Below, piece after piece: positions 5,807 to 33,359 of a stretch of 40,988 nt of DNA. The DNA is taken from contig JAISLO010000006.1 of NCBI GenBank assembly GCA_031290815.1, positions 1-40,988 on the forward strand. The letters run 5' to 3'. The translations under genes and the position numbers were made by a program. The notes beneath the pieces were generated by a model. That model searched no databases. It was not told the origin of the DNA and saw only the letters and a program-made list of their open reading frames with translations. Each line of letters begins with the position of its first letter. Positions within the stretch are counted from its first letter, which is position 1. The DNA is from Synergistaceae bacterium (GTDB lineage Bacteria > Synergistota > Synergistia > Synergistales > Synergistaceae).

Positions 5807-5810
<4 letters not shown>
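4593..5810 (-). CDS. ABC transporter permease, MacB/FtsX family (4 TM with a large periplasmic domain)
   Basis: 405 aa. N-terminal TM (FLTTLGIIIGVGAVIA), a periplasmic domain of about 220 aa, and a C-terminal FtsX-type 3-TM bundle (ERTREIGIRMAVGA motif). Overlaps the upstream ATPase gene by 4 nt. Confidence 0.92.
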
Positions 5811-6517
<707 letters not shown>

Positions 6518-6538
6518 GAGAATTCTCCCGTCACGCTG

Positions 6539-7765
6539 TCATTCGATAGGGATGTCGATCCCAATTATTATCTCCGTTCCGGGTTCTAGGCCGGAGGTTA
6601 TCTCCGTGTCCTTCCCGTCGGTGATGCCGGTCTCGACCTCTATTTTCAACGGGACGCCGTCTTTGAGCCCATATACCGCCGGTTTTCTCGAAAAGCCCTC
6701 ATCCTCGGCCGTTTCGTCTCCCCCTCCGCCGCCTCGCCTTCTCATTCCAGGACCTCCCGACGCCGGCGTCGAAGCGTTCTTTTCGTCGGTGAGCGGACGA
6801 AAGCGCAGGGATGCGTTCGGGACTTTTACCACGCCGGCCTTTTCCTCCACTATAAGGGTGACGTTGGCCGTCATGCCTGGGATGAGGTTATGTCCCTCGA
6901 TTTGTTCGTTCAGGAAGGACACGATCGCCTTATACGATATTACGTTGTTCTCCGTCGTAGGTGAAAGGCGTATCTGCGTGACCGTCCCGCTGAACTTTCT
7001 CTCGGGAAAAGCGTCGACGTTGAATTCTACCGCCTGTCCCTTGCTGACGCTGCCGATGTCGGCCTCGTCGATGTTCACCTCGACCTGCATTCGCGACAGA
7101 TCTTCGGCTATCTCGGCGATAGTCGGCGTGTTGAAGCTCGCCGCCACCGTCTGGCCGACGTTCACGTTTTTAGTGACCACCACGCCGTCGACCGGCGAGT
7201 ATATGCGGGTGTAGTCCAACTGGAGCTTGGCGTTCTTTACGGCCGCCAACTGGGCGGTAACCCTCGCCCGGGCTGACGAAAGCCTGGCCTTTGACGTCTG
7301 GAGCGAGGTCTCGTCAGCATCGAGCTCGGACCTCGCTATCAGATCCTTGGAGTACAGCTCTTGCGACCTGCGAAGTTTGTCCCGCGAATGTTTGAGGTTG
7401 GCCTCAGCCTCGGCGACGTCGGCCTCGATCGCCAGAAGCGACGCCCTGGCCTGTTCCAGCCCGGCTTCGTGGGGCTCCGGGTCTATGATGGCGATCAACT
7501 GTCCCTTCCTCACGACGCTGTTGTAGTCGACATACAGCTCCTTCAAAGTTCCGGAGATCTGTGTGCCGACGCTTATCATGGAGACGGCCTGCACCTTTCC
7601 GGTGGCGAGGATTACGGACCTCATGTCCCCTCGCTTGGCGGCGGCCGTTATATATTCGATCGGCGGCTCCTTCGACGAGTCGACGTACAGCCATGCTCCG
7701 CCGCTCAGAAGCCCGGCTAGAACCAGAAATATCAGAATCCGCCTCAGCGCCTTGCCCTTCTTCAT
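6539..7765 (-). CDS. Efflux periplasmic adaptor (membrane fusion protein, MacA/HlyD family)
   Basis: 408 aa. Signal/anchor helix, lipoyl-like segment, long coiled-coil hairpin (EADVAEAEANL..ARVTAQLAAVKNAKLQLDYTRIYSPVDGVV) and beta-barrel domains. Contains a Gly/Arg-rich insert, GGPGMRRRGGGGGDE. Confidence 0.9.
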   Translation of the reverse strand: MKKGKALRRILIFLVLAGLLSGGAWLYVDSSKEPPIEYITAAAKRGDMRSVILATGKVQAVSMISVGTQISGTLKELYVDYNSVVRKGQLIAIIDPEPHEAGLEQARASLLAIEADVAEAEANLKHSRDKLRRSQELYSKDLIARSELDADETSLQTSKARLSSARARVTAQLAAVKNAKLQLDYTRIYSPVDGVVVTKNVNVGQTVAASFNTPTIAEIAEDLSRMQVEVNIDEADIGSVSKGQAVEFNVDAFPERKFSGTVTQIRLSPTTENNVISYKAIVSFLNEQIEGHNLIPGMTANVTLIVEEKAGVVKVPNASLRFRPLTDEKNASTPASGGPGMRRRGGGGGDETAEDEGFSRKPAVYGLKDGVPLKIEVETGITDGKDTEITSGLEPGTEIIIGIDIPIE

Positions 7766-9120
7766 CGAAGCATACCTCCAATCGCCCTGAGAAGATCGAC
7801 CTCAGCTGCGTTCTTGTTGTAAAGGGCGTTTGCGGCGCTCATGCGGGCCCTTGCGTATCCGTCGACGGCGTCCGAAATCTCTAGGGACTCTCCAACCCCG
7901 GCGGTGTAACGGCCCTCGGCCAGCCTGAGGGTTTCGAGCGCTTGCTTCTCCGCCTCCCTCGCCGCTGCGACCGACTCCCTTGCCTCCTCCAAAGACGTAC
8001 AGGCTGTGCGAACCTGCGAGATTATGTTCTGCCTGACGCTCTCTCCGCTGGCCCTGGCGCCTTCGAGATCGGCTTCGGCCTGCCTCACCCGCGTTCTAGT
8101 CTCCCCTCCATCCGTGACGGGGATGGAGATGCCCACCGACAGACGCCAGCCCTTTCTGTCAATCGGGTTGTTCTCGCCGGAGTATGTATACCCCGCGTTT
8201 CCGGTCACCGTTGGGGACATTCCTTTTTTGGCAAGCGCCAGGTTGGTCTCGGCCGCGTCTATGCGGATGTTCTGCGCCCTGTACTCGTCCCGGTTCCGCA
8301 TGGCCGTCTCGATCGCCTCGTCTACGCTGACGTCCAGATTCAGAAAACCGGCATCCAGCATGTCCTTGACGTTTCCCGCAGGCATATCCGGGACGCCGGC
8401 AGCATACGCCAGGTTGGACTCGGCCTTTCTGAGCGTCCCCTCCGCGGTCACGAGATCCAGCTTTGCGTTTGCGAGGTCCGTCTTAGCCTTCGTCACCTCT
8501 ATCTTGGCCTTCGCCCCGGCCTTGTAGAAGTCCGTGGCCCATTCGAGCCGTCTTTCATAGTTTCGAAGCCTCTCTTTGGCGATAGCGAGCGTCCTGTCCC
8601 CGCAGTTCAGGGAGAAGTATGCCTTGATCACGTCCCTGATCACATCCTGCTCCGATGCCGACTCGTCGGACTGCCGAGCCTCCAGCTCCTGCCGCGCCGC
8701 CTGGATGGACAGATTGGTCCGGTTCCAGTCGAAGATCGTCTGGGAGAGCGTGATATCGGTGTTTATCGAGCCGGCCTCTCCGCCGCCCTCATTGTATGAT
8801 CTGGCGTAGGACGACGAAACCCGAACCTGGGGCCGCGTCTGGGCGGCCGTCCCATCGACCCTGAAGCCCTGCGACTCGACTCCGCTGCGCGCCTCCCTCA
8901 AACGGGGATGCGCCTCCAGAGCCAACTCTATACAGCGGTCTATCGTGATGACCCCGTTTGGGTTGACATCGCCGGACAACTCGCCGGCAAGGGCCGGTCC
9001 GCATATCACCGAGGCGAGCAGCGATGCCGCAAGGGCCGAACGTATGAGCGTGATATTTTTTTTCAAAGAGATCCAACACCCTCCAAGCGGAATTCGGCGC
9101 AAATCCACCCCATGTTTCAA
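7762..9120 (-). CDS. TolC-family outer membrane efflux protein
   Basis: 452 aa with the typical TolC two-repeat coiled-coil/beta pattern (LTLSQTIFDW, NLALAKKGMSPTVTG). The likely true start is the TTG at 9066, giving MKKNITLIRSALAASLLASVICGPALAGE with a signal peptide. First gene of a 4-gene operon with overlapping stops and starts. Confidence 0.9.
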   Translation of the reverse strand: MKHGVDLRRIPLGGCWISLKKNITLIRSALAASLLASVICGPALAGELSGDVNPNGVITIDRCIELALEAHPRLREARSGVESQGFRVDGTAAQTRPQVRVSSSYARSYNEGGGEAGSINTDITLSQTIFDWNRTNLSIQAARQELEARQSDESASEQDVIRDVIKAYFSLNCGDRTLAIAKERLRNYERRLEWATDFYKAGAKAKIEVTKAKTDLANAKLDLVTAEGTLRKAESNLAYAAGVPDMPAGNVKDMLDAGFLNLDVSVDEAIETAMRNRDEYRAQNIRIDAAETNLALAKKGMSPTVTGNAGYTYSGENNPIDRKGWRLSVGISIPVTDGGETRTRVRQAEADLEGARASGESVRQNIISQVRTACTSLEEARESVAAAREAEKQALETLRLAEGRYTAGVGESLEISDAVDGYARARMSAANALYNKNAAEVDLLRAIGGMLR

Positions 9121-9482: not shown

Positions 9483-10151
9483 ATGACAATACGCATCCTC
9501 ATCGCGGACGATCACCCGCTGACCAGGTCGGGGCTCGCCGAATGGATCAAGAGGAACGCCAATTTCTCGCTTACCGCGGAGGTCGAGGATGGGATCGAGG
9601 CCTGGAGGAGCATCCAGGAGTCTCAGCCGGATGTAGCCCTCCTCGACATACAAATGCCGGGCGAGAACGGGATCGCGGTGGCGCAGAGGATAAAGGAAGC
9701 ATCGATTCCAACCAGGGCGATAATGCTGACCTCTTTCAACGCGCAGCCGTATGTGATGGCCTCGCTCAGGGCCGGGGCAAGGGGTTTTGTGCTCAAGACG
9801 ACCGCGGTCAGGGAGCTCGACGTGGCCGTGAAACAGGTGATGGACGGCGGATTTTATCTCGACTCGAAGGTGGCGGGAGTGCTCGGCGACAGGGACTCCA
9901 TGCCCGAACCGCTCTCAGCCCGCGAGCGAGAGGTCCTGCTGATCATGTCGAAGGGATTTTCGATAAAGGAGATCGCCGCGAAGCTGTGTATTACCGAACG
10001 AACGGTCCAGGCTCATCTGACGTCCGTTTACTCCAAGTTTTGCTGCAGGGGAAAGGGAGAAGCGCTTCTCGTCGCCCTCAAGTTCGGGATAATAACTCTG
10101 GATGAGCTCCTGGAGGGCACGTCTCTGGACGAGGCCGGCAATCAGTGCTGA
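9483..10151 (+). CDS. Two-component response regulator, NarL/LuxR family (REC + LuxR HTH)
   Basis: 222 aa. IRILIADDHPL..., phospho-acceptor context ALLDIQMPGENG, C-terminal LSAREREVLLIMSKGFSIKEIAAKLCITERTVQAHL. SD GGAGG lies 8 nt upstream. Confidence 0.93.
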   Translation: MTIRILIADDHPLTRSGLAEWIKRNANFSLTAEVEDGIEAWRSIQESQPDVALLDIQMPGENGIAVAQRIKEASIPTRAIMLTSFNAQPYVMASLRAGARGFVLKTTAVRELDVAVKQVMDGGFYLDSKVAGVLGDRDSMPEPLSAREREVLLIMSKGFSIKEIAAKLCITERTVQAHLTSVYSKFCCRGKGEALLVALKFGIITLDELLEGTSLDEAGNQC

Positions 10152-11629
10152 GGCGCAGGCTGCTCACCATCCTTTTTATATGCACGCTGCTGCCGGTGCT
10201 GATCGTCCTCTTCGAGTCGGCGGCCACGGTCTTCTCTCAGAAAAAATCCACGACGGAGATCTCCGGGCGCTACGTCGAAAGCCTCGCCAACTACGCCGCC
10301 GACCGCTGGAACGAGGGCAACGTCGAGCGCATAAACGCCTTCCTGTCGCTCGTCGCCGACCAGGGGTACGACAGACTGGTATCCTCGGAGCGCGCGGACT
10401 CGTTCGCTCCAAACCGCCGCATGGAGCGGTTCAAAATCAGCATGAAGGGCAAGTTCATACCAGGCCTGGTGGCCTATGTGACGCTGGATGGCAATCTCAT
10501 CTCCTGCTCCCAGAACGCGACCATACTGACGAAAATCTACGAGAGGACCGTCGCGGAGGCGCGATTTCCCGGCGCATCCGCTGAGGGGCGCATAGTCGGC
10601 AGCATCAGGACCGGGTCCGACTATATAACATACGTCGCCCACACGGCGCCGACGAACGATCCGATGGTCTACGCGGTCGCGGCAGTCACAATGCTCAGCT
10701 GGATGGGAAGGAACGACTTCAACATGATGAAGCTCGCATTCGCTGGAACGATGGGGATGATGATCTGTCTCATCGCGCTGTTCTTTCTCCGCAGGTCGGT
10801 CATAACGCCGCTTCAGGCGCTCTCAGCTCAGGTGAGTACGCTGAAATGGGGCAAAGAGGCGCCTGAGCCCATTCAGGACGGAGCTGCCAGGAGCATAGGC
10901 AAACTTCAGGTCGATGAGATCTCCTCGCTTCGCAGCGCAATATTCGACCTCGCCCTCAGGATGATAGAAAAGGACGAGCTGGAAAAGCGATACCTGGGCG
11001 ACATAATAAAGGCGCAGGAACTGGAGAGGAGCCGCATCGCGCAGGATATTCACGACGGCCCTATTCAGGTCGTCTCGGCTTTCATTCAGCGCATACAGAT
11101 CGCCAATATAACGTCGAAGGACCTCCCCGAATCCACCAGGGAGGAGTTGTCGACCGTCGAGAGCATAGCCGGGGATTTGGTGGAGGACCTGCGAGACATC
11201 TGCGATTCCCTTGTCCCCCCGTGGGTTTCTCTCGGCATAGTGTCGTGCATGGAGGAAGCGGCAAGCAGATTCGAGCGTCAGCATTCCATCACCATATTCA
11301 CGAACGTGGATCAGACGCTCGATATCTCACAGGAAGCCACGCTGGCCATATTCAGAATTTTTCAGGAGGCTGTCTCCAACGCGGTCAGGCACGGGGGGGC
11401 GACCGAGGTGACCGTGGACGCGCGGCGCGACCCGGAAGGCAAGTCCGCAGAGTTCGTGATATCCGACAACGGCTCGGGCTTCAACCCCAACGACAAGATA
11501 ATGAGCGACCTCGTCCGTGACGGAAAGCGAGGCCTCAACGGAATGAGGCAGAGGGTCGAGCTGCTCGGCGGCGAATATGAACTGTGGTCCGAGCCAGGGC
11601 ATGGCACGAGGATCATGATAAGGATATAA
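10145..11629 (+). CDS. Sensor histidine kinase, HisKA_3 (NarX/LiaS/DegS-type), with a periplasmic sensor of about 165 aa between two TM helices
   Basis: 494 aa. TM1 LLTILFICTLLPVLIVLF, TM2 FAGTMGMMICLIALFFL, H-box ERSRIAQDIHDGPIQ, N-box FQEAVSNAVRHG, G-boxes DNGSGF and GLNGMRQR. Overlaps the regulator gene by 7 nt. Confidence 0.92.
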   Translation: MLRRRLLTILFICTLLPVLIVLFESAATVFSQKKSTTEISGRYVESLANYAADRWNEGNVERINAFLSLVADQGYDRLVSSERADSFAPNRRMERFKISMKGKFIPGLVAYVTLDGNLISCSQNATILTKIYERTVAEARFPGASAEGRIVGSIRTGSDYITYVAHTAPTNDPMVYAVAAVTMLSWMGRNDFNMMKLAFAGTMGMMICLIALFFLRRSVITPLQALSAQVSTLKWGKEAPEPIQDGAARSIGKLQVDEISSLRSAIFDLALRMIEKDELEKRYLGDIIKAQELERSRIAQDIHDGPIQVVSAFIQRIQIANITSKDLPESTREELSTVESIAGDLVEDLRDICDSLVPPWVSLGIVSCMEEAASRFERQHSITIFTNVDQTLDISQEATLAIFRIFQEAVSNAVRHGGATEVTVDARRDPEGKSAEFVISDNGSGFNPNDKIMSDLVRDGKRGLNGMRQRVELLGGEYELWSEPGHGTRIMIRI

Positions 11630-12237: not shown

Positions 12238-12855
12238 TTGAAAAGGGTTGCCCTGTATGTCTTGCTTGCTTCTGGAGTGTTGATAGGGCTTATCTGGCAT
12301 TTTGCCCTCGATCAGACGACGTTCGCTTTTGTGGCCGTTCTTCTGATTCTGCTCATCCCTGTGCCGCTGATATGCATTGCGACAAGGTCCAGCGCTCAGA
12401 GGGAGGAGGAAGTCAGAGGCGCGCTCGAAGCGGCTCGGAACTTTGTCCTTGCGCGCAAGGAGATCCGGTCCAGGATTCCCAAGAACAATCCGCGCAGAGA
12501 ATCGCCCGCGGCGTTCGAGGGCGCGGCTAAGATCGGCGCTGTCCGTTCCATGGCCCCGCTTCTCCGCAAGCCGAACCTGCGGATGATCGTTTTGGAGGTG
12601 TGTGACTTCGCGGACATGGTGCTGGAGACTATAAGGCGGATGCCGTGCGACTCGCCGGCTGCGGTCTTCTTCTCTGAGAACCTCCTGTCCCGCCTCGTGG
12701 ACGCGCTGGATATATGCTTCGAAATAAGCTGCCGAGACAAGAACGCCGCCTCCCCAACGGCTGACGCGCGAGAAATAGAGTGTTTCAGCTTCTTCATAAC
12801 CGCCATCAAAAAACAGCAGGATCTCATCCTGTTCGAGGGAGAAAGCAAGGGATAA
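12238..12855 (+). CDS. Hypothetical membrane protein (two N-terminal TM helices plus a helical cytoplasmic domain; architecture reminiscent of the XpaC/5-bromo-4-chloroindolyl-phosphate-hydrolysis family)
   Basis: 205 aa. TTG start 5 nt after the strong SD GGAGGAGGGG. TM helices VALYVLLASGVLIGLIW and FAFVAVLLILLIPVPLICI. Codon usage resembles neighbouring genes. The family suggestion is weak. Confidence 0.6.
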   Translation: MKRVALYVLLASGVLIGLIWHFALDQTTFAFVAVLLILLIPVPLICIATRSSAQREEEVRGALEAARNFVLARKEIRSRIPKNNPRRESPAAFEGAAKIGAVRSMAPLLRKPNLRMIVLEVCDFADMVLETIRRMPCDSPAAVFFSENLLSRLVDALDICFEISCRDKNAASPTADAREIECFSFFITAIKKQQDLILFEGESKG

Positions 12856-12945
12856 TCATATGTTATACCCTTGCCATTCGGGCATCTGACATAAAACCAC
12901 GTGAAAGCCCACGTGAAACCATCCTTAAATCCCTTGCAATCATCC

Positions 12946-12973
12946 TGGAAATGCCGAGGAATTGTGCTAAAAT
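12946..12973 (+). promoter_or_regulatory. Candidate extended -10 promoter for carAB
   Basis: TGGAAA (12946-12951), 16-nt spacer ending in TGc, TAAAAT (12968-12973), about 55 nt upstream of the carA start. Confidence 0.35.
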
Positions 12974-13027
12974 GAGAAGTATATTGGGCATGTGATATAA
13001 ACTTTGGTTTTATTAGGGGGAAATCTA

Positions 13028-14113
13028 GTGTCGTCTGCATATCTGGTTCTCGAAAACGGCGGAGTTTTCGAGGGGGAGTCCTTTGGCCTGGCGGCGGATG
13101 CCGAAGGGGTTACCGGCGAAGTGGTGTTCACTACCGGGATGACCGGTTACCTCGAGACTCTGACGGATCCAAGCTATCATGGACAGATTATAGTGCAAAC
13201 ATGGCCTCTGATAGGAAACTACGGAGTGATACGCGATGATTTCGAGAGTTTGTCGCTGCAGCCGAGGGGGTACGTGGTCAGGGAATGCTGCGACACGCCG
13301 TCCAACTTCCGCAGCGAGGGTCCTCTCGCTTCGCTGCTTGCCGAGCGCGGAATAGTCGGAGTCAAGGGAATAGACACGCGAGCCCTCACCCGGATTATAA
13401 GGGAGAAGGGCGTGATGAACGGAATCATAACGAGCGATCCTGAGAACGTCAGCCTCGACTCTCTCCGGAGCTACGCGATACGCGACGCCGTGGCCGGTGT
13501 TTCGACGCGCGAGGTTTTTGTCGTAAATCCCGACACTTCCGAAGGCAGCGGACATCACGTCGTGCTATGGGACTTCGGGGCCAAGGCGAATATCGCGCGC
13601 TCCCTGGCCTCAAGAGGCTGCAAGGTTACCGTGGTCCCTCACAGCCTCACGGCGGAACAGATCCTGAAACTCGAACCGGACGGCGTGACGTTGTGCAACG
13701 GCCCCGGCGACCCGGAGGAGAACGCGGGCGTTATAGCCGAACTCAAAAAATTTACGGAGAGCATGACACCGGTGTTTGGCATCTGTCTCGGCCATCAGAT
13801 CCTGGCCCTGGCCATGGGCGCCTCCACGGAAAAGATGAAATACGGCCACAGAGGGTCGAATCAACCAGTGCGCGATACTCGGACGGGATCTATATCCATA
13901 ACGACTCAAAATCACGGTTACTCCGTCGCGCCGGACAGCCTTCCGCGCGGCGCGATTCTGCGGTACGTCAACGCGAACGACGGAACGTGCGAGGGGATAG
14001 ACTACGAAAACATACCTGCCTTCAGCGTTCAATTTCACCCGGAGGCGTCGGCGGGACCGCTGGACACATCGTTCCTCTTCGACCGTTTTATCCTCATGAT
14101 GGAGGCTGAGTAA
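13028..14113 (+). CDS. carA: Carbamoyl-phosphate synthase small (glutamine amidotransferase) subunit
   Basis: SSAYLVLENGGVFEGESFG..GEVVFTTGMTGYLETLTDPSY.., catalytic triad context GICLGHQ and ..QFHPEA. The GTG at 13028 follows SD AGGGGG by 7 nt and aligns with the canonical CarA N-terminus. The ORF track starts at a TTG at 13004. Confidence 0.95.
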   Translation: MSSAYLVLENGGVFEGESFGLAADAEGVTGEVVFTTGMTGYLETLTDPSYHGQIIVQTWPLIGNYGVIRDDFESLSLQPRGYVVRECCDTPSNFRSEGPLASLLAERGIVGVKGIDTRALTRIIREKGVMNGIITSDPENVSLDSLRSYAIRDAVAGVSTREVFVVNPDTSEGSGHHVVLWDFGAKANIARSLASRGCKVTVVPHSLTAEQILKLEPDGVTLCNGPGDPEENAGVIAELKKFTESMTPVFGICLGHQILALAMGASTEKMKYGHRGSNQPVRDTRTGSISITTQNHGYSVAPDSLPRGAILRYVNANDGTCEGIDYENIPAFSVQFHPEASAGPLDTSFLFDRFILMMEAE

Positions 14114-14114
14114 A

Positions 14115-17100
14115 ATGCCTCTCTACGGCGGTGTGCGCAAGGTTCTCGTGATAGGCTCGGGCCCGATAGTCATAGGGCAGGCGGCCGAATTCGACTATGC
14201 CGGCACCCAGGCGTGCAGGGCGCTGCGCGAGGACGGGCTCGAGATAGTGCTCGTCAACTCAAACCCGGCCACGATAATGACCGACTCCGCGATGGCCGAC
14301 GTGGTGTACATCGAACCGCTCACGGTGACGACGCTCAAACGAATCATCGACAAGGAGCGCCCCGACAGCATACTGCCGACGCTCGGCGGACAGACGGGGC
14401 TGACGTTGGCCATGATGCTGGCGAAGGAGGGATTTCTCGCCGAGAGAGGGATAAAACTTCTGGGCGCCAGCCCCGAAACGATAGACATGGCCGAGGACAG
14501 ACAGCTCTTCAAGGATGCGATGGAGAGGATCGGGCAGCCTGTGATTCCGTCCAGGGTCGTGGAAAATGTCGCCGACGCGCTGACATTCGCGGATGAGATC
14601 GGATATCCTCTCATAGTGCGGCCCGCGTTCACCCTTGGGGGGAGCGGGGGCGGGATCGCGTCGTCCGCCGGCGAGCTAAGGCGCGTCGCCGAAGACGGCC
14701 TGAGGATGTCGCCCATCGGACAGATACTGGTAGAGCGGTCCGTAGCCGGCTGGAAGGAGATAGAGTTCGAGGTGATGCGCGACTCCGCAGGCAACGTCGT
14801 CACAGTCTGCGGCATGGAAAATTTCGACCCGGTCGGGATCCACACGGGGGACAGCATAGTCGTCGCCCCCACGCTCACGCTCTCCGACAAGGAGTATCAG
14901 ATGCTCCGGACGGCGGCCCTGGACATAATATCCGAGCTCGGCATAGAGGGCGGATGCAACTGCCAGTTCGCCCTCTCCCCCGACAGCTTCGATTACGCCG
15001 TGATAGAGGTGAACCCGAGGGTTTCGCGTTCGTCGGCCCTCGCCTCCAAGGCCACCGGGTACCCCATAGCTAAGGTCGCCGCCAAGATCGCGATAGGTTA
15101 CAGGCTGGATGAGATTCCCAACGCCGTGACCGGCAAGACCAGCGCCTGCTTCGAGCCTGCGCTTGACTACGTGGCCGTGAAGTTTCCGAAGTGGCCGTTC
15201 GACAAGTTCGCCCGCGCCCCAAGGACGCTCGGCACCCAGATGAAGGCGACCGGAGAGGTGATGTCGCTCGCGCCGTCGTTCGAGATGGCTCTGATGAAGG
15301 CGGTGCGCGGCGCCGAAATACACCAGCAGACGCTTTATCTGTCGAAACTCGGAAAACTCGACGACGCCAGCCTCATGGATGCGCTGCGCACGGCCACGGA
15401 CGAGCGGATATTTCAGATCTTCGAAGCCATGCGGCGAGGCGTCTCATGCGACGAGATACATGGAATCACCAAGATAGACAGGTGGTTTCTATACAGGTTG
15501 GAAAACCTCGTCCGCTTCGAATCGGAGCTGAGGGAAACGGGCCTCACCGACGCCATGCACCGAGAGGGAAAGCGGCTCGGGTATCCCGACAACGTGCTGG
15601 AGACGATCTCGGGAGGAACCGTGAGCCGGCATATTCCGGCATCCTACAAGATGGTCGACACGTGCGCGGGAGAGTTCGCGGCGGAGACCCCTTACTTTTA
15701 CTCGACCTTTGACGATGACAACGAGGCTGAGGATTTCATCAAGTCGAGGAGCGCCGGAAACAAGGGGACCATAGTCGTCCTCGGTTCCGGCCCGATTCGC
15801 ATCGGGCAGGGTATAGAATTCGATTATTCCAGCGTCCACTGCGCTTGGGCGCTGAGGCGGCTCGGATATGAAGTCGTGATAATAAACAACAACCCGGAGA
15901 CGGTGTCGACCGATTTCGACACTGCCGACAGGTTGTATTTCGAACCGCTGACACCTGAGGATGTCAGAGACATCCTGAACCTCGAAAAACCCGTCGGAGT
16001 CGTCGCGGCGTACGGCGGGCAGACCGCCATAAAGCTGGCCGGTTACCTCAACGAGCACGGCTTCGATATCCTGGGCACCTCGTTCGACAGCATAGATCTG
16101 GCCGAGGACAGGGAGAGGTTCGACGCCCTTCTCGGCGGGCTTGGAATTTCGCGCCCCGACGGAGGAACGGCAGTCACCATGGACGAGGCGCTCTCCGCAG
16201 CGAGACGTCTCGGCTATCCCGTCCTCGTCCGGCCGTCGTACGTGCTGGGCGGTCAGAACATGAGCATAGCGTTCTCCGACGACGACGTGCGGGAGTTCAT
16301 GGAGATCATCCTGGACAGCGACGTTCGCGGCCCTGTGCTGATCGACAAGTATCTGCGCGGAACCGAGATAGAGGTGGATGCCGTGTGCGACGGTACCGAC
16401 ATATTGATACCCGGCATCATGGAGCATGTCGAGCGGACCGGCATACACTCCGGCGATTCCATAGCTGTTTATCCGGCGCTCAACGTGACCGACAGGCTGA
16501 TCGATCTCATAGTCGACCACACCGCCAAGATCTCGCTCGCCATGAAGGTCAGGGGAATAGTGAACGTTCAATATATAATCTACGATGACGACGTTTACGT
16601 CATCGAGGTCAATCCCAGGGCGTCCAGGACCGTGCCTTATATAAGCAAGGTCACGGGGGTCCCCATTGTGGATCTGGCCACGCGGGCGATGCTGGGCGAG
16701 CGCCTGTCGGACATGGGATATGGGACCGGGTTGTATCCTCCGGCACCGTACGCGGCCGTCAAGGTCCCGGTGTTCTCGTTCGAAAAACTTCACGGCGTGG
16801 ACACTCATCTCGGCCCCGAAATGAAGTCCACCGGAGAGGTTCTGGGCATCGGCAAGACGCTGGAGGAGGCGATGTACAAGGGACTGCTGGCCGCCGGTTA
16901 CAAGCTGCTGAGGAGCGGAGGCGTTCTCTTCACCGTCAGGGACAGCGATAAGCCCGAGATCGTCGACGTCGCGAAGAAGTACGCGTCACTGGGTTTGAAC
17001 CTCTACGCGACGCGAGGGACGGCGTCCGCCCTCTCCCGCTCAGGGCTCCCCGCCATAGTCATACACAAGATCAGCGAGGCCTGCGACAATGTGATCACGC

Positions 17101-18161
17101 TCATGGAGAGCGGCAAGGTGCAGTACATAGTGTCGACGTCGGCGCGAGGCCGCGATCCTGCGAAGGAGAGCGCTCAGATCAGGTCGCTCGCCACTCGCCT
17201 GGGCATCCCGTGCCTGACTTCGATAGATACCGCGACCGCCCTCGCCGACAGTCTGAAGAGCAGATACAGCGAGGGGAACACCGAACTGGTGGACATCAAC
17301 GACATGAGGCGCGAGCGCAGGGCGATACGCTTCTCCAAGATGCACAGCTGCGGTAAGGACGACCTGTACTTCGATTGTTTCGATCAGGACATAGAGTCCC
17401 CTGAATCACTGTCGATAATGCTCGCGGACAGGCATTTCGGGGTGGGCGGTCACGGCGTCGTGATGATGTACCCATCGGAACGGGCGGACGCCACGATGAG
17501 GCTCTTCAACACCGACGGAAGCGAGGGATTCATGAGCGCGTCCGCGATAACCTGCATCGGCAAGTACCTGTACGAGAGCGGGAGGACGGGCGGCCGCAAG
17601 GATATGACGATCGAGACCCAAAGCGGCGTCATGAGGCTCGATATATACACGAGATACGGCAGAGCGGTCTCCGGAAGGGTGAACCTCGGCGCGCCCAGGT
17701 TCCTGCCGGCCGACATCCCGGTCCTCCTGGCCGGAGCGAGGGTCATGGGCCGCGTCGTCGAAATCGGCGGCAAGGCTTTCTCCATCACATGCGTGTCGAT
17801 GGGAAGTCCGCACTGTGTGATATTCTGCAATGATATCGACAATTGCGGCATAGAGACTCTCGGTCCGTTGGTGGAGACCGCTTCGATATTCCCGATGAGG
17901 ACTAATGTAGAATTTGTCAAGGTTTTGGACGACCGGACCCTGAGGATGCGGATATGGGAGCGCGGGGACGGCGAGACCCCCGCGAGCGGAAGCGGCGCCT
18001 GCGCCGCTGTCGTATCGGCTGTCCAGAACGGCTTTTGTTCCAGGTCAGGCTTAGTCCGCGTGATCCAAAACGGAGGGGACATGACGGTGGACTATTCGGG
18101 AGACGAGGTTATCCTGAACTGCAGGGTGCACAAGGTCTTCGACGGCGCGGTGGAAATATAA
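14115..18161 (+). CDS. carB: Carbamoyl-phosphate synthase large subunit (residues 1-1070) fused in frame to a DapF-like domain (residues 1071-1348)
   Basis: 1348-aa uninterrupted ORF. Both ATP-grasp halves are present ([22 protein letters not shown].. and [21 protein letters not shown]..), as is the MGS-like allosteric domain ([22 protein letters not shown]..). After ..ELVDINDM the frame continues into a DapF homologue. Confidence 0.93.
   Translation: [1348 protein letters not shown]
17325..18161 (+). other. DapF (diaminopimelate epimerase)-like C-terminal domain of CarB with catalytic Cys-to-Ser substitutions
   Basis: [13 protein letters not shown].., [83 protein letters not shown]. These align end to end with E. 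coli DapF ([92 protein letters not shown]). Confidence 0.85.
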
Positions 18162-18170
18162 ACAAAACAA

Positions 18171-18207
18171 GGGCCACAAAAACCGGGTCGCCCGGTTCAT
18201 GTGGCCC
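18171..18207. terminator. Bidirectional stem-loop between convergent carB and the OmpM-like gene
   Basis: Outer stem GGGCCACA (18171-18178)/TGTGGCCC (18200-18207), inner stem ACCGGG/CCCGGT. Lies in the 65-nt convergent gap. Confidence 0.65.
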
Positions 18208-18226: not shown

Positions 18227-19774
18227 TCAGAACGCCACGTATGTGCGGAAACGCACTATGTTGTCGCTGCCATTGCGCAACTCGTCACCGTTTCTTTCGC
18301 CATAGTCTATCGCATCATAGACCAGTTCGAACTCGACCGCGTCGTTCAGGCGATATCCGACTCCTACGCTCCAGTTGAACGCGTCGTCGATGCCGGCGGT
18401 GTCATGATCGGCCGCGAAGTAGCGCAGATAAGTCCTCCACTTGTCGTTCCACTCCTGATCCATCCTCACCCCGTAGATCTTCGTGCTGTTCATGTTGATC
18501 GGCATATTGGCCAGAAGGCTTGCCCCGCCGTCAGTGTACGTCGCGCTGACTCCGAGATCGGAATAAACCGAAAACCTCTCGTTTGTGAGGAAGTTATTGT
18601 CGATCTGGCCATATTCGACCCATACGCTGGTGAACTTGAGCACATCCTGCTTGACGTCGAGGATAGCCTTCCACGCCGACGCGCTGTCGTCATAGTTGGT
18701 CGCCGTTCCGCTCAGCAACTGAGCAAGGGTATCCCCCTGAGCCTGGTGGTAGTAAATCACCTTGCCCTCCACGCCTGGGGTGAACGTAAACCCGGCATAC
18801 GCGCCGATGATTCCGACGCTGGTGTCCGTCTCACTGTTGTCAGTCAACGGAATCTCCTCATCCGCAAAAATCCAATAACCTATCAGACCTCCGCGGAAGC
18901 GCTCGGAAAAGTTGAAGTCGGCGAGGCCCGCCACCAGGAAGCGCTCTATCGGTGATGTTGGGTCATCGCCAAGGCTGGGCACTCCGGCGTCGTCGTTAGC
19001 GCGGCCCGCAAGCAGCTTCAGGTTCGCGATGCCCCAGTCCTTCTCGAAGAGGAACATGTTGAACGTCCAGTCCCCGATTATGGGCTCGTTATCCACGTAC
19101 AGTTCGAGGTCGCCCTCCCAGTCCAGATCGGCCAGACCGACGGTCAGGCTGATGTCATACGGCAGGACAGTCGTCACGTAGTAGTTCGCCCACACCACCA
19201 CATTTCCAGAATCACGCTCCAGCCTCGCGGCGAAGTTAGTGGTATCGTTCACTCGCTTTCTGAGCCACAGCACGTAGTCAGCAAGTTCGAACTCGTTCTC
19301 CCCGGCGTAGTCAGCGTCGTCGCTGTACCAACCCTTGTCGGCCGCCTGGCCGAACTTGGCGTTGAAGGTGAGCTCGCCAGCCAGGCTCCAGCCGCCTATG
19401 TCCTCCTCCAGAACCGCGATGCGCTCGTCCAGATTGTCCACCCTAACTCCAAGCGCGTCCAGCTCGTCCTTGAATTCGACTATGAGACGCCTCATCATCT
19501 CGACATCCTGCTTGCTCGCCTTGTCGAGGTCGATATTCGCGAGAGCCCTGGCGATAATCGACGCCATTTCGTAGCGGGTAGAGGGCTGGGCGCCCTTGAA
19601 AGAACCGTCTGGATAGCCCGATATGACGCCCCTGGAGGCGAGCTGAGCAACCGCGTCATACGCCCAATGGCTTGCTGGGACATCCATGAACGGATTGGTC
19701 GCCGCAACCGACTGTGACGCGAACGATGCGAGAATAACCGCAATTGCCGCTGCAAGAAGTGCTTTTCTCATCAT
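18227..19774 (-). CDS. SLH-domain outer-membrane porin (OmpM/Mep45-like: signal peptide, SLH domain, coiled coil, beta-barrel)
   Basis: 515 aa. Signal peptide MMRKALLAAAIAVILASFASQSVAA. SLH motif NPFMDVPASHWAYDAVAQLASRGVISGYPDGSFKGAQPSTRYEMASIIARAL. Heptad region DVEMMRRLIVEFKDELDALGVRVDNLDERIAVLEEDI. Alternating beta-strand pattern ending in ..RFRTYVAF (C-terminal Phe). SD AAGGAG. Confidence 0.88.
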   Translation of the reverse strand: MMRKALLAAAIAVILASFASQSVAATNPFMDVPASHWAYDAVAQLASRGVISGYPDGSFKGAQPSTRYEMASIIARALANIDLDKASKQDVEMMRRLIVEFKDELDALGVRVDNLDERIAVLEEDIGGWSLAGELTFNAKFGQAADKGWYSDDADYAGENEFELADYVLWLRKRVNDTTNFAARLERDSGNVVVWANYYVTTVLPYDISLTVGLADLDWEGDLELYVDNEPIIGDWTFNMFLFEKDWGIANLKLLAGRANDDAGVPSLGDDPTSPIERFLVAGLADFNFSERFRGGLIGYWIFADEEIPLTDNSETDTSVGIIGAYAGFTFTPGVEGKVIYYHQAQGDTLAQLLSGTATNYDDSASAWKAILDVKQDVLKFTSVWVEYGQIDNNFLTNERFSVYSDLGVSATYTDGGASLLANMPINMNSTKIYGVRMDQEWNDKWRTYLRYFAADHDTAGIDDAFNWSVGVGYRLNDAVEFELVYDAIDYGERNGDELRNGSDNIVRFRTYVAF

Positions 19775-24616: not shown

Positions 24617-25942
24617 ATGGGGGAGGGAATCTATCTGAGACCGTCAATTGGCATTATCACAGCGGAACGATCGATGGAGCTGATCCGAAAAGCGCACGGC
24701 GAGATGAGCCGCATGTGTGATGTGACGTATCTCCCGTATGTCTCCATGCGGAATTTGGCCGACGTATACGAAAAGAACGCGCACCGGTTCGACGGGCTGA
24801 TCTTCAGCGGGAGGTTCCCGTACTCTTATATAGTGAGCCAGGTCGGCGGCATCCTCAAGCCTCACGATTACTTCGAGCTGACCGACAGGGACTACTACAG
24901 GGCGTTCGCCGGCATACTGTATAGATTTCCGGGAATAAGCGTCTCGCGAATTCTCATAGACAAGCCGTACTCAGCCGTGGATTTTGGCGACGTGTTTCGC
25001 GGAGACATCCCGATGTTCTTCGATCCCTTCGTGGAAAACGACGCCTCGAGCCTCGAAGCGGCGTATGAGAAGACCATGAGGCAGTCCGTCGCCCTGTGGC
25101 GCGAGAAAAAAATAGACCTGGTAGTGACTCGCCTCACCAATTTAGCGGAGATGCTCGGCGCGTCGGGCATACCGTTCGAGCTTTTGTTCCCGTCCGTCGC
25201 CTCGATGCTGGATGTGTGCGGTTCGCTGTTCAGTCTGATCCAGTCTCGCATGCTGACCGGCGCCATGGTCGCCTCGGGGATAGTCTCGTGGGCCGAACCT
25301 GCTGGGGCGGAGGAGAACAAGAATCTCCTGTCCCTGCTGAACAAGTTTAACGGAAAAAACGGCATGTCGCTCGTGATCAGGAGAAACGGCGGAATATTCG
25401 AGCTCACCACCTCGAACGAGACGCTTGAGGACATCACCTATGGATACACGGACTGCGTGCTCTCAAATTATCTCCAGAGCGAGCTCGGGGAAGGAGTCTG
25501 CGTAGGCTGGGGGCTTGGCATGGATATCGTCTCCTCGGGGCAGAACGCAATGAGGGCGTTCAGGGAGTCAATACGCAGCGCCAGGCATCACGCGTATCTC
25601 GTAAACGACATCGGGGATCAGATAGGCCCTATGGCTGGCGGAAAATCCGTCACGATGTCTGGCGTCACCAGCGCAGGCATCGAGGAGACCGGGCGCAGGC
25701 TGGGCATATCCCCCGCCAACCTGCAAAAAATTATCAGCCTTCAGGAGCATCGTGGCATCAAAACCTTCAGCAGCGCCGACCTCGCGTTCTACCTCAACAT
25801 CACCGCGCGCAGCGCGGGTCGCATACTCTCTCGCCTGGCCGAGAACGGATGGGCCAGCGTAGTGCGGCGCGACCAGCCTAACGCAAAGGGACGTCCATAT
25901 AAAATATACGACGTGGATTGCGAAAAACTGGGGCAGGGCTGA
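24617..25942 (+). CDS. Putative transcriptional regulator (N-terminal PrpR_N-like sensory region, C-terminal winged-HTH)
   Basis: 441 aa. C-terminal ADLAFYLNITARSAGRILSRLAENGWASVVRRDQPNAKGRPYKIYDV looks like a wHTH. Transcribed divergently from gltS/abgB-like. The start codon is uncertain: an SD-like GGGGGAGGG lies just after the annotated ATG. Confidence 0.6.
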   Translation: MGEGIYLRPSIGIITAERSMELIRKAHGEMSRMCDVTYLPYVSMRNLADVYEKNAHRFDGLIFSGRFPYSYIVSQVGGILKPHDYFELTDRDYYRAFAGILYRFPGISVSRILIDKPYSAVDFGDVFRGDIPMFFDPFVENDASSLEAAYEKTMRQSVALWREKKIDLVVTRLTNLAEMLGASGIPFELLFPSVASMLDVCGSLFSLIQSRMLTGAMVASGIVSWAEPAGAEENKNLLSLLNKFNGKNGMSLVIRRNGGIFELTTSNETLEDITYGYTDCVLSNYLQSELGEGVCVGWGLGMDIVSSGQNAMRAFRESIRSARHHAYLVNDIGDQIGPMAGGKSVTMSGVTSAGIEETGRRLGISPANLQKIISLQEHRGIKTFSSADLAFYLNITARSAGRILSRLAENGWASVVRRDQPNAKGRPYKIYDVDCEKLGQG

Positions 25943-26151: not shown

Positions 26152-27207
26152 ATGTTCAAGTTCTTATCAGGTCTGTTCAGCCGGGATATTGGTATAGATC
26201 TGGGCAGCGCTAATACCGTGGTTTATGTTAAAGGACGCGGCGTGGTGATCGATGAGCCTTCTGTCTTAGCCGTTCGCAAGGTGGGAAATAAAGGCCGCAA
26301 AGAGGTAATCGCCTTTGGCCATCCCGCAAAGAGGATGATCGGCAAGACCCCGGTGGGCATAGAGACCATACGGCCGCTGCAGCACGGAGTCATAGCCGAC
26401 TTCGACATGACCGAGCAGATGGTCGGTCATTATATGACGGCGGCCAACCAGGGACGCCGGCTGATGGCCCATCCCCGAGTCGCGATATGTGTGCCGGCGT
26501 GCGTCACCGAGGTCGAGAAGCGGGCCGTCGTGGACGCGACCCTCGGCGCGGGGGCGAGGGAGGCGTTTGTGGTCGAGGAGCCCCTGGCCGCGGCGCTCGG
26601 CACCGGACTGCCCATCAACGAGCCGCGCGGCAACATGGTGGTCGACATTGGAGGCGGCACAAGCGAGGTTGCTGTCCTTTCGCTCGGCGGCGTGGTGATA
26701 AGCAACTCCCTGCGCACCGCCGGGGATGATTTCGACACCGCCATAGTATCGATGCTGAGGCAGAATTACACGCTTTCGATCGGCGAGAGCACGGCGGAGG
26801 AGGTTAAGATCAGCATCGGGTCCGTGATATCCCTCGAGGAGGAGCTCGAGATGGAGGTCAAGGGACGCGATCTCATGGATGGGCTTCCCAAGGTCGTAAG
26901 AGTGACATCCAACGAGGTTCGGGAGGCCATCGAGCCCTTCATCTGCCGTATCGAGGACATGCTTCGCTATGCGGTGGAACAGACTCCGCCCGAGCTGGTA
27001 AAGGACATAGTGGATCAGGGGCTGGTGCTGACCGGAGGCAGCGCGCTCCTGAGAGGGCTGAACGTTCGTCTTTCCGATGTCATGAACGTTCCCGTTCATA
27101 TGGCGGAGCAGCCGCTTTTCTCGGTGGCGTTGGGCCTGGGAAAGCTGCTCGAGACCGTGGATCGCGGTGATAAGATATCCGTCACCATCGATCACTCGAC
27201 AGTGTAG
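26152..27207 (+). CDS. mreB: Rod shape-determining actin homologue MreB
   Basis: 351 aa. DIGIDLGSANTVVY, DIGGGTSEVAVLSLGG, VLTGGSALLRGL. Confidence 0.97.
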   Translation: MFKFLSGLFSRDIGIDLGSANTVVYVKGRGVVIDEPSVLAVRKVGNKGRKEVIAFGHPAKRMIGKTPVGIETIRPLQHGVIADFDMTEQMVGHYMTAANQGRRLMAHPRVAICVPACVTEVEKRAVVDATLGAGAREAFVVEEPLAAALGTGLPINEPRGNMVVDIGGGTSEVAVLSLGGVVISNSLRTAGDDFDTAIVSMLRQNYTLSIGESTAEEVKISIGSVISLEEELEMEVKGRDLMDGLPKVVRVTSNEVREAIEPFICRIEDMLRYAVEQTPPELVKDIVDQGLVLTGGSALLRGLNVRLSDVMNVPVHMAEQPLFSVALGLGKLLETVDRGDKISVTIDHSTV

Positions 27208-27236
27208 CGTGAGAGCAGGGGAGGCGATCCTCCCGA

Positions 27237-28034
27237 ATGGCGGGCAAACTCAATTCCATTCTGGTAAACTCGCTTGTGGCGCTCTTCTGCGGCCTTATGA
27301 CGTTGTGGGTGTCGTACGCGTTTCCGGTTGCCGTGAGGTCGATGGCGGACAAAGTAGGGGCCGCCTTGTCATACCCAGAGATGCCGGCACAGGAGCTTCG
27401 AGCCCTGGTGCAGACCATCGGAAACTGGGTGATGGAACGAAAGAGCCTCCAGGACAGAAACAGGGAGCTTGAGATAGAAAACCTCGCACTGCGCGCCGCT
27501 TTGCATGACGCGGCGCTTCCCCGCCCGGCGTCCGCGGCCGATATGATCGGCGCAAGGGTGACGCTGAGATACCCGGAAGCGTGGTGGAAGGAGGTTCGCA
27601 TCAACATGGGATCCTCCCAAGGCGTCAAGGTTGGGGCGCCTGTGCTCTCGGACGGATATATGATCGGGAAGGTCGCCATGGTTGGCGAGGATTATTCGTG
27701 GGTGGAGCTCATCACATCGGCCTCGTTTTTGTTGGCGGCGGTCGTGAACGAGACGTGGGACCTGGGCGTGATAAACGGCGATGACAGGGGAAATATCTGG
27801 CTCCTCTACATGCCGCCGGAGAGGGAGTTCAAGCGTGGGATGATGGTCTCGACCGCGATGGTTGGGGATTATCTGCCGCCGGGAATACCCATAGGCAGGA
27901 TATGGGGAAACGGCGAGACGAGAGATGGCTTCACGCCGCAGAGCGTGGTCTCAGGCGCGCATCTGACGCAGCTCTACAATCTGCAGGTGCTCTTGGTCTT
28001 CGGCGAGACGGAAGCCGGCGGAGCGCGGAATTGA
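27237..28034 (+). CDS. mreC: Rod shape-determining protein MreC
   Basis: 265 aa. N-terminal TM, coiled coil (LQDRNRELEIENLALRAAL), beta-rich C-terminal domain. Sits between mreB and mreD. Confidence 0.88.
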   Translation: MAGKLNSILVNSLVALFCGLMTLWVSYAFPVAVRSMADKVGAALSYPEMPAQELRALVQTIGNWVMERKSLQDRNRELEIENLALRAALHDAALPRPASAADMIGARVTLRYPEAWWKEVRINMGSSQGVKVGAPVLSDGYMIGKVAMVGEDYSWVELITSASFLLAAVVNETWDLGVINGDDRGNIWLLYMPPEREFKRGMMVSTAMVGDYLPPGIPIGRIWGNGETRDGFTPQSVVSGAHLTQLYNLQVLLVFGETEAGGARN

Positions 28035-28501
28035 TCGTGTCAGTCGCCGCCTGGCTGCTGCAGGACCTGCTTCAGGTCCTGACTATGGGCTTCATGCTGG
28101 TGCCGGAATTTTTCATGCTCGTGGTCGTCTACATGACGATATCGGGCCCGCTCGACGAGGGGCGGATATCGTTTTGGCTGTGGTTTGCCTTTGCCGGAGG
28201 AGTCCTGTGGGATCTTAGATGGGCGGCCGTTCCTGGTATGAGCGGACTGATAAACGTTGCGGCGGTCGCCACGGTTTTCTGGGTGTGGAACAGGACGCCG
28301 GCCGGGGGGAGGAGCGCCGTGCTCTTTGCCGGGCTTGCTGGCGGGATTCACTTTCTGTCGGGCATCGCGCACTACTTCTCGTGGGCCGTGCCCAGCCAGG
28401 CCGCCACGAGGATGTTCCTGATCCAGCAGCTGATGTCGGTTCCGGCGCTGGTGCTGCTGTGTTTTGTTTATGCTGTGAGGGTCAGAGATCAGCATGTATA
28501 A
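28031..28501 (+). CDS. mreD: Rod shape-determining protein MreD
   Basis: About 156 aa, polytopic. A TTG at 28031 overlaps the mreC stop (TTGA); a GTG at 28037 is also possible. The ORF-track start at 27902 lies inside mreC and is unlikely. Confidence 0.8.
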   Translation: MIVSVAAWLLQDLLQVLTMGFMLVPEFFMLVVVYMTISGPLDEGRISFWLWFAFAGGVLWDLRWAAVPGMSGLINVAAVATVFWVWNRTPAGGRSAVLFAGLAGGIHFLSGIAHYFSWAVPSQAATRMFLIQQLMSVPALVLLCFVYAVRVRDQHV

Positions 28502-30227: not shown

Positions 30228-30296
30228 TCACTGATCGATCATTTATGATATATTTATCGTGATGTTGAATCATAATTTGTTTAAGGGGGCGGCGTT

Positions 30297-30992: not shown

Positions 30993-31111
30993 TGGAACGG
31001 CTGATTGAATCGGCAGGACGACACTCAGCCGTTTTAAATGATGCCTCCGTCAGGGTTTTATTCCGATTTGAAGTCAACAGTTATTTTCTGTTTTATCGAG
31101 GAGGAGTTTAA

Positions 31112-33340: not shown

Positions 33341-33359
33341 CGCCCCGCGGCAAGACAAG

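Follow-up and report, generated by a model that had tools for sequence, protein, structure and literature searches.

A window of 40,988 nucleotides from a termite-gut Synergistaceae bacterium (assembly GCA_031290815.1, contig JAISLO010000006.1, positions 1 to 40,988) carries a gene, here called carB::dapF-like, in which the large subunit of carbamoyl-phosphate synthase (CPSase), CarB, runs without interruption into a homolog of the diaminopimelate (DAP) epimerase DapF. Both catalytic cysteines of DapF are serine in this protein and residues around the reacting carbon have been exchanged, and the same state is found throughout a clade of related genomes. We tentatively interpret the domain as a DapF-derived pseudoenzyme that may act at the allosteric end of CPSase in ligand binding or regulation. 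The carB::dapF fusion as such is already present in the databases and is undescribed in the literature searched, and the Ser/Ser form with its remodeled pocket is new.

The gene lies on the forward strand (14115..18161) and consists of one open frame of 1348 codons followed by TAA. Residues 2-1050 match the CarB equivalog model NF003671 with 1452 bits (cut-off 599) and the protein reaches 1405 bits against TIGR01369 (CarB; cut-off 1027), with the complete Pfam set of CarB (CPSase_L_D1 twice, D2 twice, D3, and MGS). Residues 1071-1346 span positions 1-268 of the 270 in the DapF equivalog profile TIGR00652 (199-204 bits, cut-off 114.65), and PF01678 is matched twice within the DapF-like domain, once in each half. 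A phmmer search of the protein against PDB sequences returned only DapF structures and O-ureidoserine racemase, with Bacillus anthracis 2otn as the best match (3.6e-56). The original prediction, made from the letters of the window alone, of a complete CarB joined in frame to a full-length DapF homolog is therefore borne out by the single open reading frame (ORF), by NF003671 and by the end-to-end match to TIGR00652. The partner gene for CarB is present as well, since carA ends 1 nt before the carB ATG; its likely start is the GTG at 13028, preceded by the Shine-Dalgarno-like motif GGGGGA, and the listed ORF opens at the TTG at 13004.

The catalytic columns were placed by alignment to solved DapF structures and about 260 Cys/Cys homologs, and E. 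coli numbering was taken from the E. coli DapF sequence, with which the published residue numbers were reproduced. The column of Cys73 holds Ser1141 (AGC, 17535-17537) and that of Cys217 holds Ser1291 (AGC, 17985-17987), so that the serines and their codons stand as first described, as do the motifs GKDD, MSASA, SMGSPH, and ASGSG; the profile search that had been proposed for the extension gave matches to TIGR00652 and PF01678, and in the phmmer alignments serine stands at the places of the two catalytic cysteines of the structures. The motifs said to be retained are found in FNTDGSE, ERGDGET, and GSGACAA, and only the C-terminal YDG signature was misread, being FDG here (F1342), which is the usual state in clostridial DapF as well. 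DapF catalysis depends on a thiol/thiolate pair, and Cys-to-Ser mutants of DapF and related racemases have <0.1% of their activity left (PMC8225329). In DapF, the reacting amino group is bound by Asn11 and the carboxylate of the reacting center by Gly74, Asn75, Gly218, and Ser219; the distal carboxylate is bound by Asn64, Asn157, Asn190, and Arg209, and the distal amino group by Glu208 (PMC8225329). Compared to E. coli DapF, Asn11 is replaced by Lys1081, Phe13 by Asp1083, Gly74 by Ala1142, Asn75 by Ser1143, and Asn157 by Ser1231, and the serine of the ERGSGET motif (Ala211 in E. coli) has become Asp1285. Asn64, His159, Asn190, Glu208, Arg209, Gly218, and Ser219 are unchanged. Hence, three of the five ligands of the reacting center have been replaced (Lys1081, Ala1142, and Ser1143, with Gly1292 and Ser1293 kept), and four of the five ligands of the distal L-center are kept (Asn1132, Asn1264, Glu1282, and Arg1283), the fifth, Asn157, being Ser1231 in the crown group; His1233, corresponding to His159, is also retained in the cleft. 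With neither thiol left and two of five proximal ligands unchanged, the domain is unlikely to be a DAP epimerase. Judged from these alignments, the cleft probably still recognizes the L-amino-acid end of some ligand, its proximal half having been rebuilt from Lys, Asp, Asp, Ser, and Ser.

The altered active site is not a peculiarity of one genome. A scan with one genome per GTDB species found a close relative in 21 metagenome-assembled genomes (MAGs) of Synergistaceae/Synergistales, many with termite-style isolate codes, and the question raised at the outset, whether related genomes carry the same extension with Ser/Ser, is answered positively by the 17 independent loci that hold the whole gene. 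In all 17 the frame is open through the junction (1318-1408 codons) and the motifs GKDD, MS[AG][ST]A, and ASG[STA]G are present. Serine occupies both catalytic columns in 29/29 members of the clade, which consequently lacks the two cysteines of DapF altogether. K1081 and D1083 are likewise invariant in these 29 Ser/Ser sequences, and the corresponding positions in the 260 Cys/Cys sequences hold an invariant Asn11 and Tyr or Phe at 13 throughout; the clade-specific residues K1081, D1083, D1285, S1141, S1291, and C1336 do not vary within the Ser/Ser clade. In the deep-branching members L016-L018 and L020, Gly74 and Asn157 are still present and position 219 is Thr or Ala, which indicates that the cleft was remodeled stepwise.

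The DapF-like domain is under purifying selection about as strong as that on CarB: the ratio of nonsynonymous to synonymous change (omega, Nei-Gojobori method, NG86) in the five closest pairs was 0.056-0.123 for the DapF-like part and 0.045-0.100 for the CarB part. The domain thus combines missing catalytic residues with purifying selection, the pattern expected of a pseudoenzyme. Codon 1141 is AGC or AGT in 18/18 sequences, one step from TGY. For Ser1291, 15 sequences use AGC or AGT and 3 use TCC or TCT, and since a switch between AGY and TCN takes two steps, serine itself appears to have been selected at this position.

An AlphaFold2 model of residues 930-1348 (49-sequence alignment) had a mean predicted local distance difference test (pLDDT) score of 90, with values <50 only at residues 1053-1062, and the model suggests that this stretch forms a flexible tether. 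When the model was compared to the PDB with Foldseek, the top 25 matches were DapF structures or O-ureidoserine racemase, the best being 9mro_A (TMt 0.91, root-mean-square deviation 1.8). The parts of the protein and the surrounding features are listed in Table 1.

Table 1. Positions in the window of the parts of the carB::dapF-like gene, its altered cleft residues, and neighboring features.
Feature	Position	Strand	Remarks
carA, CPSase small (glutaminase) subunit	13028..14113	+	NF009475, 442 bits; alignment to the listed ORF begins at its residue 11
CarB moiety, residues 1-1063	14115..17303	+	Two ATP-grasp halves, oligomerization domain, MGS-like allosteric domain
MGS-like allosteric domain, residues 948-1035	16956-17219	+	Pfam MGS
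Junction/linker, residues 1051-1070	17265..17324	+	Holds conserved Met1064 (ATG 17304); predicted to be flexible
DapF-derived domain, residues 1064-1348 and TAA	17304..18161	+	Full two-lobe DapF fold, Ser/Ser "dyad"
K1081-D1082-D1083 (GKDD motif)	17355..17363	+	Replaces DapF Asn11, which binds the reacting alpha-amino group, and Tyr/Phe13
S1141-A1142-S1143	17535..17543	+	Replaces Cys73-Gly74-Asn75 (catalytic thiol, N-terminus of the carboxylate-binding helix)
S1231	17805..17807	+	Replaces Asn157 (distal carboxylate ligand); Asn in deep-branching clade members
E1282-R1283-G-D1285-G-E-T-P-A-S1291-G1292-S1293	17958..17993	+	Glu208 and Arg209 kept; Cys217 replaced by Ser
GC-rich inverted repeat GGGCCACA...TGTGGCCC	18171..18207	.	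Between the convergent carB::dapF-like and SLH-porin genes; read directly
SLH-porin gene	18227-19774	-	
Ordinary chromosomal context genes	4593-9120	-	
Ordinary chromosomal context genes	9483-11629	+	
Ordinary chromosomal context genes	26152-31915	+	
Ordinary chromosomal context genes	37314-40733	+	
ORF with DUF match only	979-3057	-	DUF5693
ORFs without NCBIfam/Pfam match or with DUF only	3338-4372, 12396-13040	-	
ORFs without NCBIfam/Pfam match or with DUF only	24617-25942, 32233-33363	+	

The original prediction had implied that a CarB-DapF fusion was without precedent, and this did not hold. In a search with the full protein, the best 120 full-length matches were all fusions of about 1345-1355 aa with the CarB domains and PF01678; the first 17 of them (74-92% identity) are from Synergistaceae and the remainder (64-68% identity) from Clostridia, including cultured organisms and complete genomes. 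Carriers among the latter include Intestinimonas butyriciproducens, Dehalobacter sp. DCM, Sporotomaculum syntrophicum, Papillibacter cinnamivorans, Oscillospiraceae MB08-C2-2, and Syntrophomonadaceae. Some UniRef entries of the family carry a name beginning "Multifunctional f," and in the literature searched neither a CarB-DapF fusion nor DapF pseudoenzymes were the subject of any paper. Annotations cross over between the two proteins: stand-alone DapFs of 279-298 aa (P0038, P0054, P0095, and P0058) are called "carbamoyl-phosphate synthase large subunit" or "carB" by JGI and in one NCBI MAG, and PGAP names the Ser/Ser fragment P0002 "diaminopimelate epimerase, partial."

Loss of the catalytic pair recurs across the family. 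Among the query and its best 120 full-length matches, the two columns read C/C in 59 proteins, S/A in 29, S/S in 18 (all Synergistaceae), G/C in 7, A/C in 3, S/C in 3, and S/T in 2, and overall the dyad was broken in 79/166 fused domains versus 7/180 stand-alone DapFs, as raw counts from searches seeded with the query protein. On a neighbor-joining tree computed from 1050 columns of the CarB part for 158 proteins, 131 of them fused (60 bootstraps, sample biased to relatives of the query), parsimony required 9-10 changes of dyad state and 4 changes between the fused and unfused condition. The S/A, G/C, S/C, and S/T clades keep Asn11, Asn64, Asn75, Asn157, His159, Asn190, Glu208, and Arg209 almost without exception, and the small A/C group is more variable at the DAP-binding residues. 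Since catalytic residues have been lost repeatedly while the domain and its binding residues were kept, the pattern suggests that the fused domain has a role independent of epimerization, and the recurrence speaks for some contribution of the appended domain to CPSase. A large clostridial Ser/Ala clade including two Ser/Thr proteins (P0297-P0387, e.g., P0319 and P0323; locus L029 8001-12068) has all DAP-binding residues in place. Stand-alone DapF homologs (270-289 aa) without an intact dyad were also seen among representatives of clusters at 50% identity, unrelated to the Synergistaceae clade: P0173 and P0248 are Ser/Ser, P0167 and P0195 Cys/Ser, and P0135 Ala/Cys.

The junction points to how the fusion was made. 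The motif TELVDINxMR is common to Synergistaceae and clostridial fusions, the Synergistaceae junction, with its SRYSE stretch, is highly conserved, and Met1064 is conserved across the whole fused family. Close unfused relatives of CarB end in ...TELIDINHM(NN)*, exactly at this methionine, and the DapF domain, with its conserved F-x-K-M-H start, begins about nine residues further on; Met1064 can thus be read as the old dapF start codon. The proposal that the ATG at 17304 would be a natural separate start is correct in so far as the codon exists as M1064 at the point where the unfused relatives stop. Unfused CarBs of 1055-1068 aa (P0392-P0402 and P0419; L027 6001-9198) branch from within the fused group on the CarB tree, and no dapF was found just downstream of close unfused relatives; the DapF domain may therefore have been lost secondarily in them.

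On the same tree the Ser/Ser clade is monophyletic (60/60), and its sister group (59/60) consists of three Cys/Cys fusions, one of them named "Firmicutes bacterium." The sister genes P0288 and P0289 lie in the order carA-carB::dapF-dapL (L030 8929-15353; L031 8926-15581), the downstream gene being LL-diaminopimelate aminotransferase, dapL, by 531-541 bits to TIGR03542, and [Clostridium] leptum has a stand-alone dapF next to dapL, with glnA and an ANTAR regulator ahead of the pair (L025 7001-9041). From this order and the pairing in C. leptum, the ancestral fused DapF appears to have worked in the DAP pathway. Neither the 41-kb window nor any of the Synergistaceae loci (flanks up to 10 kb) contains dapL, and a Cys/Cys DapF run with tblastn against all loci and the window matched fused copies only, so that the association with DAP/lysine genes expected of a DapF is missing there. 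When the CarB part alone was used as query, the best matches outside the clade were clostridial CarBs, fused and unfused, at 69-72% identity, and no named cultured Synergistota stood among the 120 matches listed. These comparisons suggest that the Synergistaceae copy may have been acquired horizontally from Clostridia. Most likely the fusion arose in Clostridia, where carB or carAB came to abut a dapF-dapL operon, and was most likely maintained vertically within its lineage. The earlier inference that the protein is no longer a DAP epimerase is strengthened by the replacement of three of five reacting-center residues, by the fixation and selection of this state across the clade, and by the lost linkage to dapL.

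If the domain is indeed a pseudoenzyme, its history may be pictured as follows. The DapF moiety of the Synergistaceae lineage would have ceased to act as DAP epimerase with the change of both thiols to Ser; the residues holding the reacting alpha-center were replaced, Asn11 by Lys, Asn75 by Ser and, later, Gly74 by Ala; and Lys1081, Asp1083, and Asp1285 were fixed as new charged residues in the cleft. The half-site for the distal L-amino-acid end, comprising Asn1132, Asn1264, Glu1282, Arg1283, and His1233, was kept. Tethered by a flexible linker of about 10 residues to the C-terminus of the CPSase allosteric domain, the remodeled cleft would bind an amino-acid-like ligand, and lobe closure and/or dimerization of the DapF type might influence the oligomeric or allosteric state of CPSase. 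Several points weigh against this interpretation. Across the family its support comes from sequence comparison and predicted structure. The pocket residues are barely more invariant than the domain as a whole (8/13 versus 37%; hypergeometric P = 0.06), the contrast between fused and stand-alone proteins ignores kinship as well as being drawn from raw counts of query-seeded searches, and the newly fixed Lys and Asp residues would suit new catalytic machinery no less than a new ligand. Nor did AlphaFold2 dock the domain confidently on the CarB part (predicted template-modeling score, pTM, 0.71, with a disordered linker), a result of the model that would fit a loosely tethered module and is neutral on allosteric coupling. 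Finally, should the organism need meso-DAP and have no other dapF, no gene for the PLP-type epimerase DapF2, and no ddh bypass, the case for a residual or changed epimerase activity would have to be reopened.

A more specific version of the pseudoenzyme interpretation, which we consider possible but doubtful, is that the domain is an allosteric sensor on CPSase, binding DAP in the dyad-less clostridial forms and a different amino-acid-like metabolite in the Synergistaceae form. In the clostridial forms, the supply of carbamoyl phosphate and pyrimidines would thereby be tied to how much of this cell-wall amino acid is at hand. A speculative rationale for such coupling would be that CPSase feeds pyrimidine synthesis and thereby UDP-N-acetylmuramic acid (UDP-MurNAc), to which MurE adds DAP, so that two inputs to peptidoglycan precursors would be linked.

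Alternatively, the domain could have become indispensable for structural reasons, with folding or oligomerization of CarB coming to depend on a DapF dimerization module whose catalysis and ligand binding then decayed once epimerization was supplied elsewhere or no longer needed. The intact fold, an omega similar to that of the CarB part, pocket invariance only marginally over background, and the retention of the domain in many lineages that lost the dyad would all be expected from such dependence. We nevertheless consider it rather unlikely, because a pure scaffold would have no need of the DAP-binding residues that the larger broken-dyad clades keep almost without exception, and because the replacements K1081, D1083, D1285, S1141, and S1291 are themselves invariant in the Ser/Ser clade, Ser1291 even through a switch of codon family. 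Moreover, the nesting of unfused CarBs among the fused ones amounts to complete loss of the domain and indicates that CarB can manage without it.

Another explanation is that the domain has become a new enzyme in which Lys1081, Asp1083, Asp1285, Ser1141, Ser1291, and His1233 of the cleft catalyze a different reaction on an amino-acid-like substrate. The new charged residues lie exactly around the former reacting carbon with the distal amino-acid half of the site kept, purifying selection is strong, and by Foldseek the fold is shared with PhzF, trans-3-hydroxy-L-proline dehydratase, and methylitaconate isomerase, enzymes that use a general base (e.g., Glu or Lys) or a Cys/Thr pair and not two cysteines. 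However, no candidate substrate can be named, the neighboring genes (carA upstream and the SLH-porin gene downstream) give no hint of a new pathway, and the other broken-dyad fused clades show no such remodeling, so that the trend of the family is non-catalytic retention. A new catalytic activity is in our view unlikely.

That the protein is still the diaminopimelate epimerase of the cell, working slowly with serine as acid/base or aided by the new Lys and Asp residues, is highly improbable. The score above the curated DapF equivalog cut-off would agree with it, as would the distal-site residues that select the L-center of DAP and are largely kept; against this stand the activity of <0.1% left in Cys-to-Ser mutants (PMC8225329), the additional replacement of the reacting-center ligands Asn11, Gly74, and Asn75, and the loss of the dapL linkage seen in the sister genes.

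As the original prediction recognized, the junction had to be secured against a lost stop or frameshift. Logan contigs from two public runs cross 16900-17509 with substitutions only and no inserted or deleted letters; these runs, one of them labeled termite gut metagenome, were the only two with related sequence (4-7% of k-mers), and their contigs are about 90% identical to the window. Although the conserved Met1064 with the weak motif GGTGGA 10 nt upstream of its ATG, at the very place where unfused relatives end, would suit a domain made mainly as a separate protein, neither this nor an assembly chimera, a lost stop, or a frameshift has more than the slightest probability, given that the same continuous frame is found in 17 full-length MAG loci and >100 clostridial proteins, complete genomes included, that contigs from other runs pass the junction without an indel, and that initiation at ATG 17304 would add to the fusion protein and not replace it. 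In one contig of run X1, which comes from a related strain, 108 nt (36 codons, in frame) are missing within 17374-17483 in the N-terminal lobe of the DapF-like domain; either a natural in-frame deletion or the faulty joining of short divergent contigs could account for this. Matches of 445-462 aa on long contigs were considered as a stand-alone MGS+DapF protein or a split carB and rejected, as the contig of P0070 has both carA and carB shattered into small ORFs. On this 114-kb ENA contig (L001 4175-9389), carA and carB::dapF are split into short called genes (78, 72, 149, and 462 aa), and since the breakage reads as frameshift errors of an error-prone assembly, P0070 (462 aa) is best seen as the tail of an ordinary fusion.

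Compared to DapF itself (EC 5.1.1.7; TIGR00652, PF01678; PDB 2otn, 9mro, and 1gqz), the domain shares homology over its full length, the two-lobe fold at TMt 0.91, 51-52% identity to the closest clostridial stand-alone DapFs, and the retained Asn64, Asn190, Glu208, Arg209, and His159, but differs in its Ser/Ser pair, in Asn11Lys, Gly74Ala, Asn75Ser, and Asn157Ser, in the new Asp residues of the cleft, and in being fused to CarB and not placed beside dapL or lysine genes. With the clostridial Cys/Cys fusions (P0322 of I. butyriciproducens; P0288 and P0289) it has the architecture, the length of about 1346 aa, the junction TELVDINxMR, and 64-68% overall identity in common. These fusions keep the whole DapF active site, whereas the window protein has lost the dyad, the reacting-center ligands, and the dapL neighbor; from their location in carA-carB::dapF-dapL, the sister-group fusions are presumably true bifunctional enzymes. 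The Ser/Ala fusions of Peptococcales and Syntrophomonadales (P0323 of Dehalobacter sp. DCM and P0319 of S. syntrophicum) resemble the Ser/Ser form in being fused, in lacking the cysteine pair, and in having been retained for long. However, their loss was independent, as they belong to another clade of the CarB tree and have another second residue, and they keep every DAP-binding residue, in contrast to the Synergistaceae clade, which rebuilt the proximal half of the cleft.

Members of the proline racemase superfamily with replaced catalytic pairs (e.g., trans-3-hydroxy-L-proline dehydratase, PDB 6r76 and 4k7g) belong to the same fold class by Foldseek but to another family at 11-15% identity, and they keep one Cys as base, whereas neither is kept here. 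Replacing one Cys of the dyad turned a racemase of that superfamily into a different enzyme. For an effect of DapF on a second protein there is a precedent, since E. coli DapF is a non-catalytic activator of RppH (PMC4227774, PMC6061791; PDB 6d13) and acts on that enzyme by protein-protein contact. In that case, however, DapF is separate and catalytically competent and its partner is an RNA pyrophosphohydrolase, and no sequence evidence was found that ties the DapF-RppH interface to that of the CarB::DapF-like protein.

The gene downstream of carB::dapF-like is convergent with it and encodes a 515-aa protein with an N-terminal S-layer homology (SLH) domain and a weak porin match, on the strength of which it may be an OmpM-like outer-membrane tether typical of diderm Terrabacteria. 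The inverted repeat between the two genes is likely a terminator with its T-run on the minus strand, and a consensus terminator scan made no call at this hairpin. Elsewhere the window holds a MacB-like permease/MacA-like adaptor/TolC-like efflux set, a NarL-type two-component pair, mreB-mreC-pbp2-minC-minD, and smc.

Because the domain exceeds the DapF equivalog cut-off, pathway reconstructions would assign a DapF that is probably absent to these bacteria and also to many Clostridia whose fusions are of the S/A, G/C, or A/C type. The allostery of CPSase has been worked out mainly in E. coli, and a ligand-binding type of domain on the allosteric end would, if confirmed, add a new regulatory layer of CPSase in anaerobic gut bacteria. 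If it acts as an allosteric sensor, CPSase would be regulated in a way that is new, and the fusion family would be a case in which an enzyme became a receptor on several independent occasions. In our opinion, the recurrent "death" of the fused DapF domain is a more interesting result than the Ser/Ser form itself, as the loss of the dyad about ten times with the domain kept constitutes a natural experiment on the change from enzyme to pseudoenzyme.

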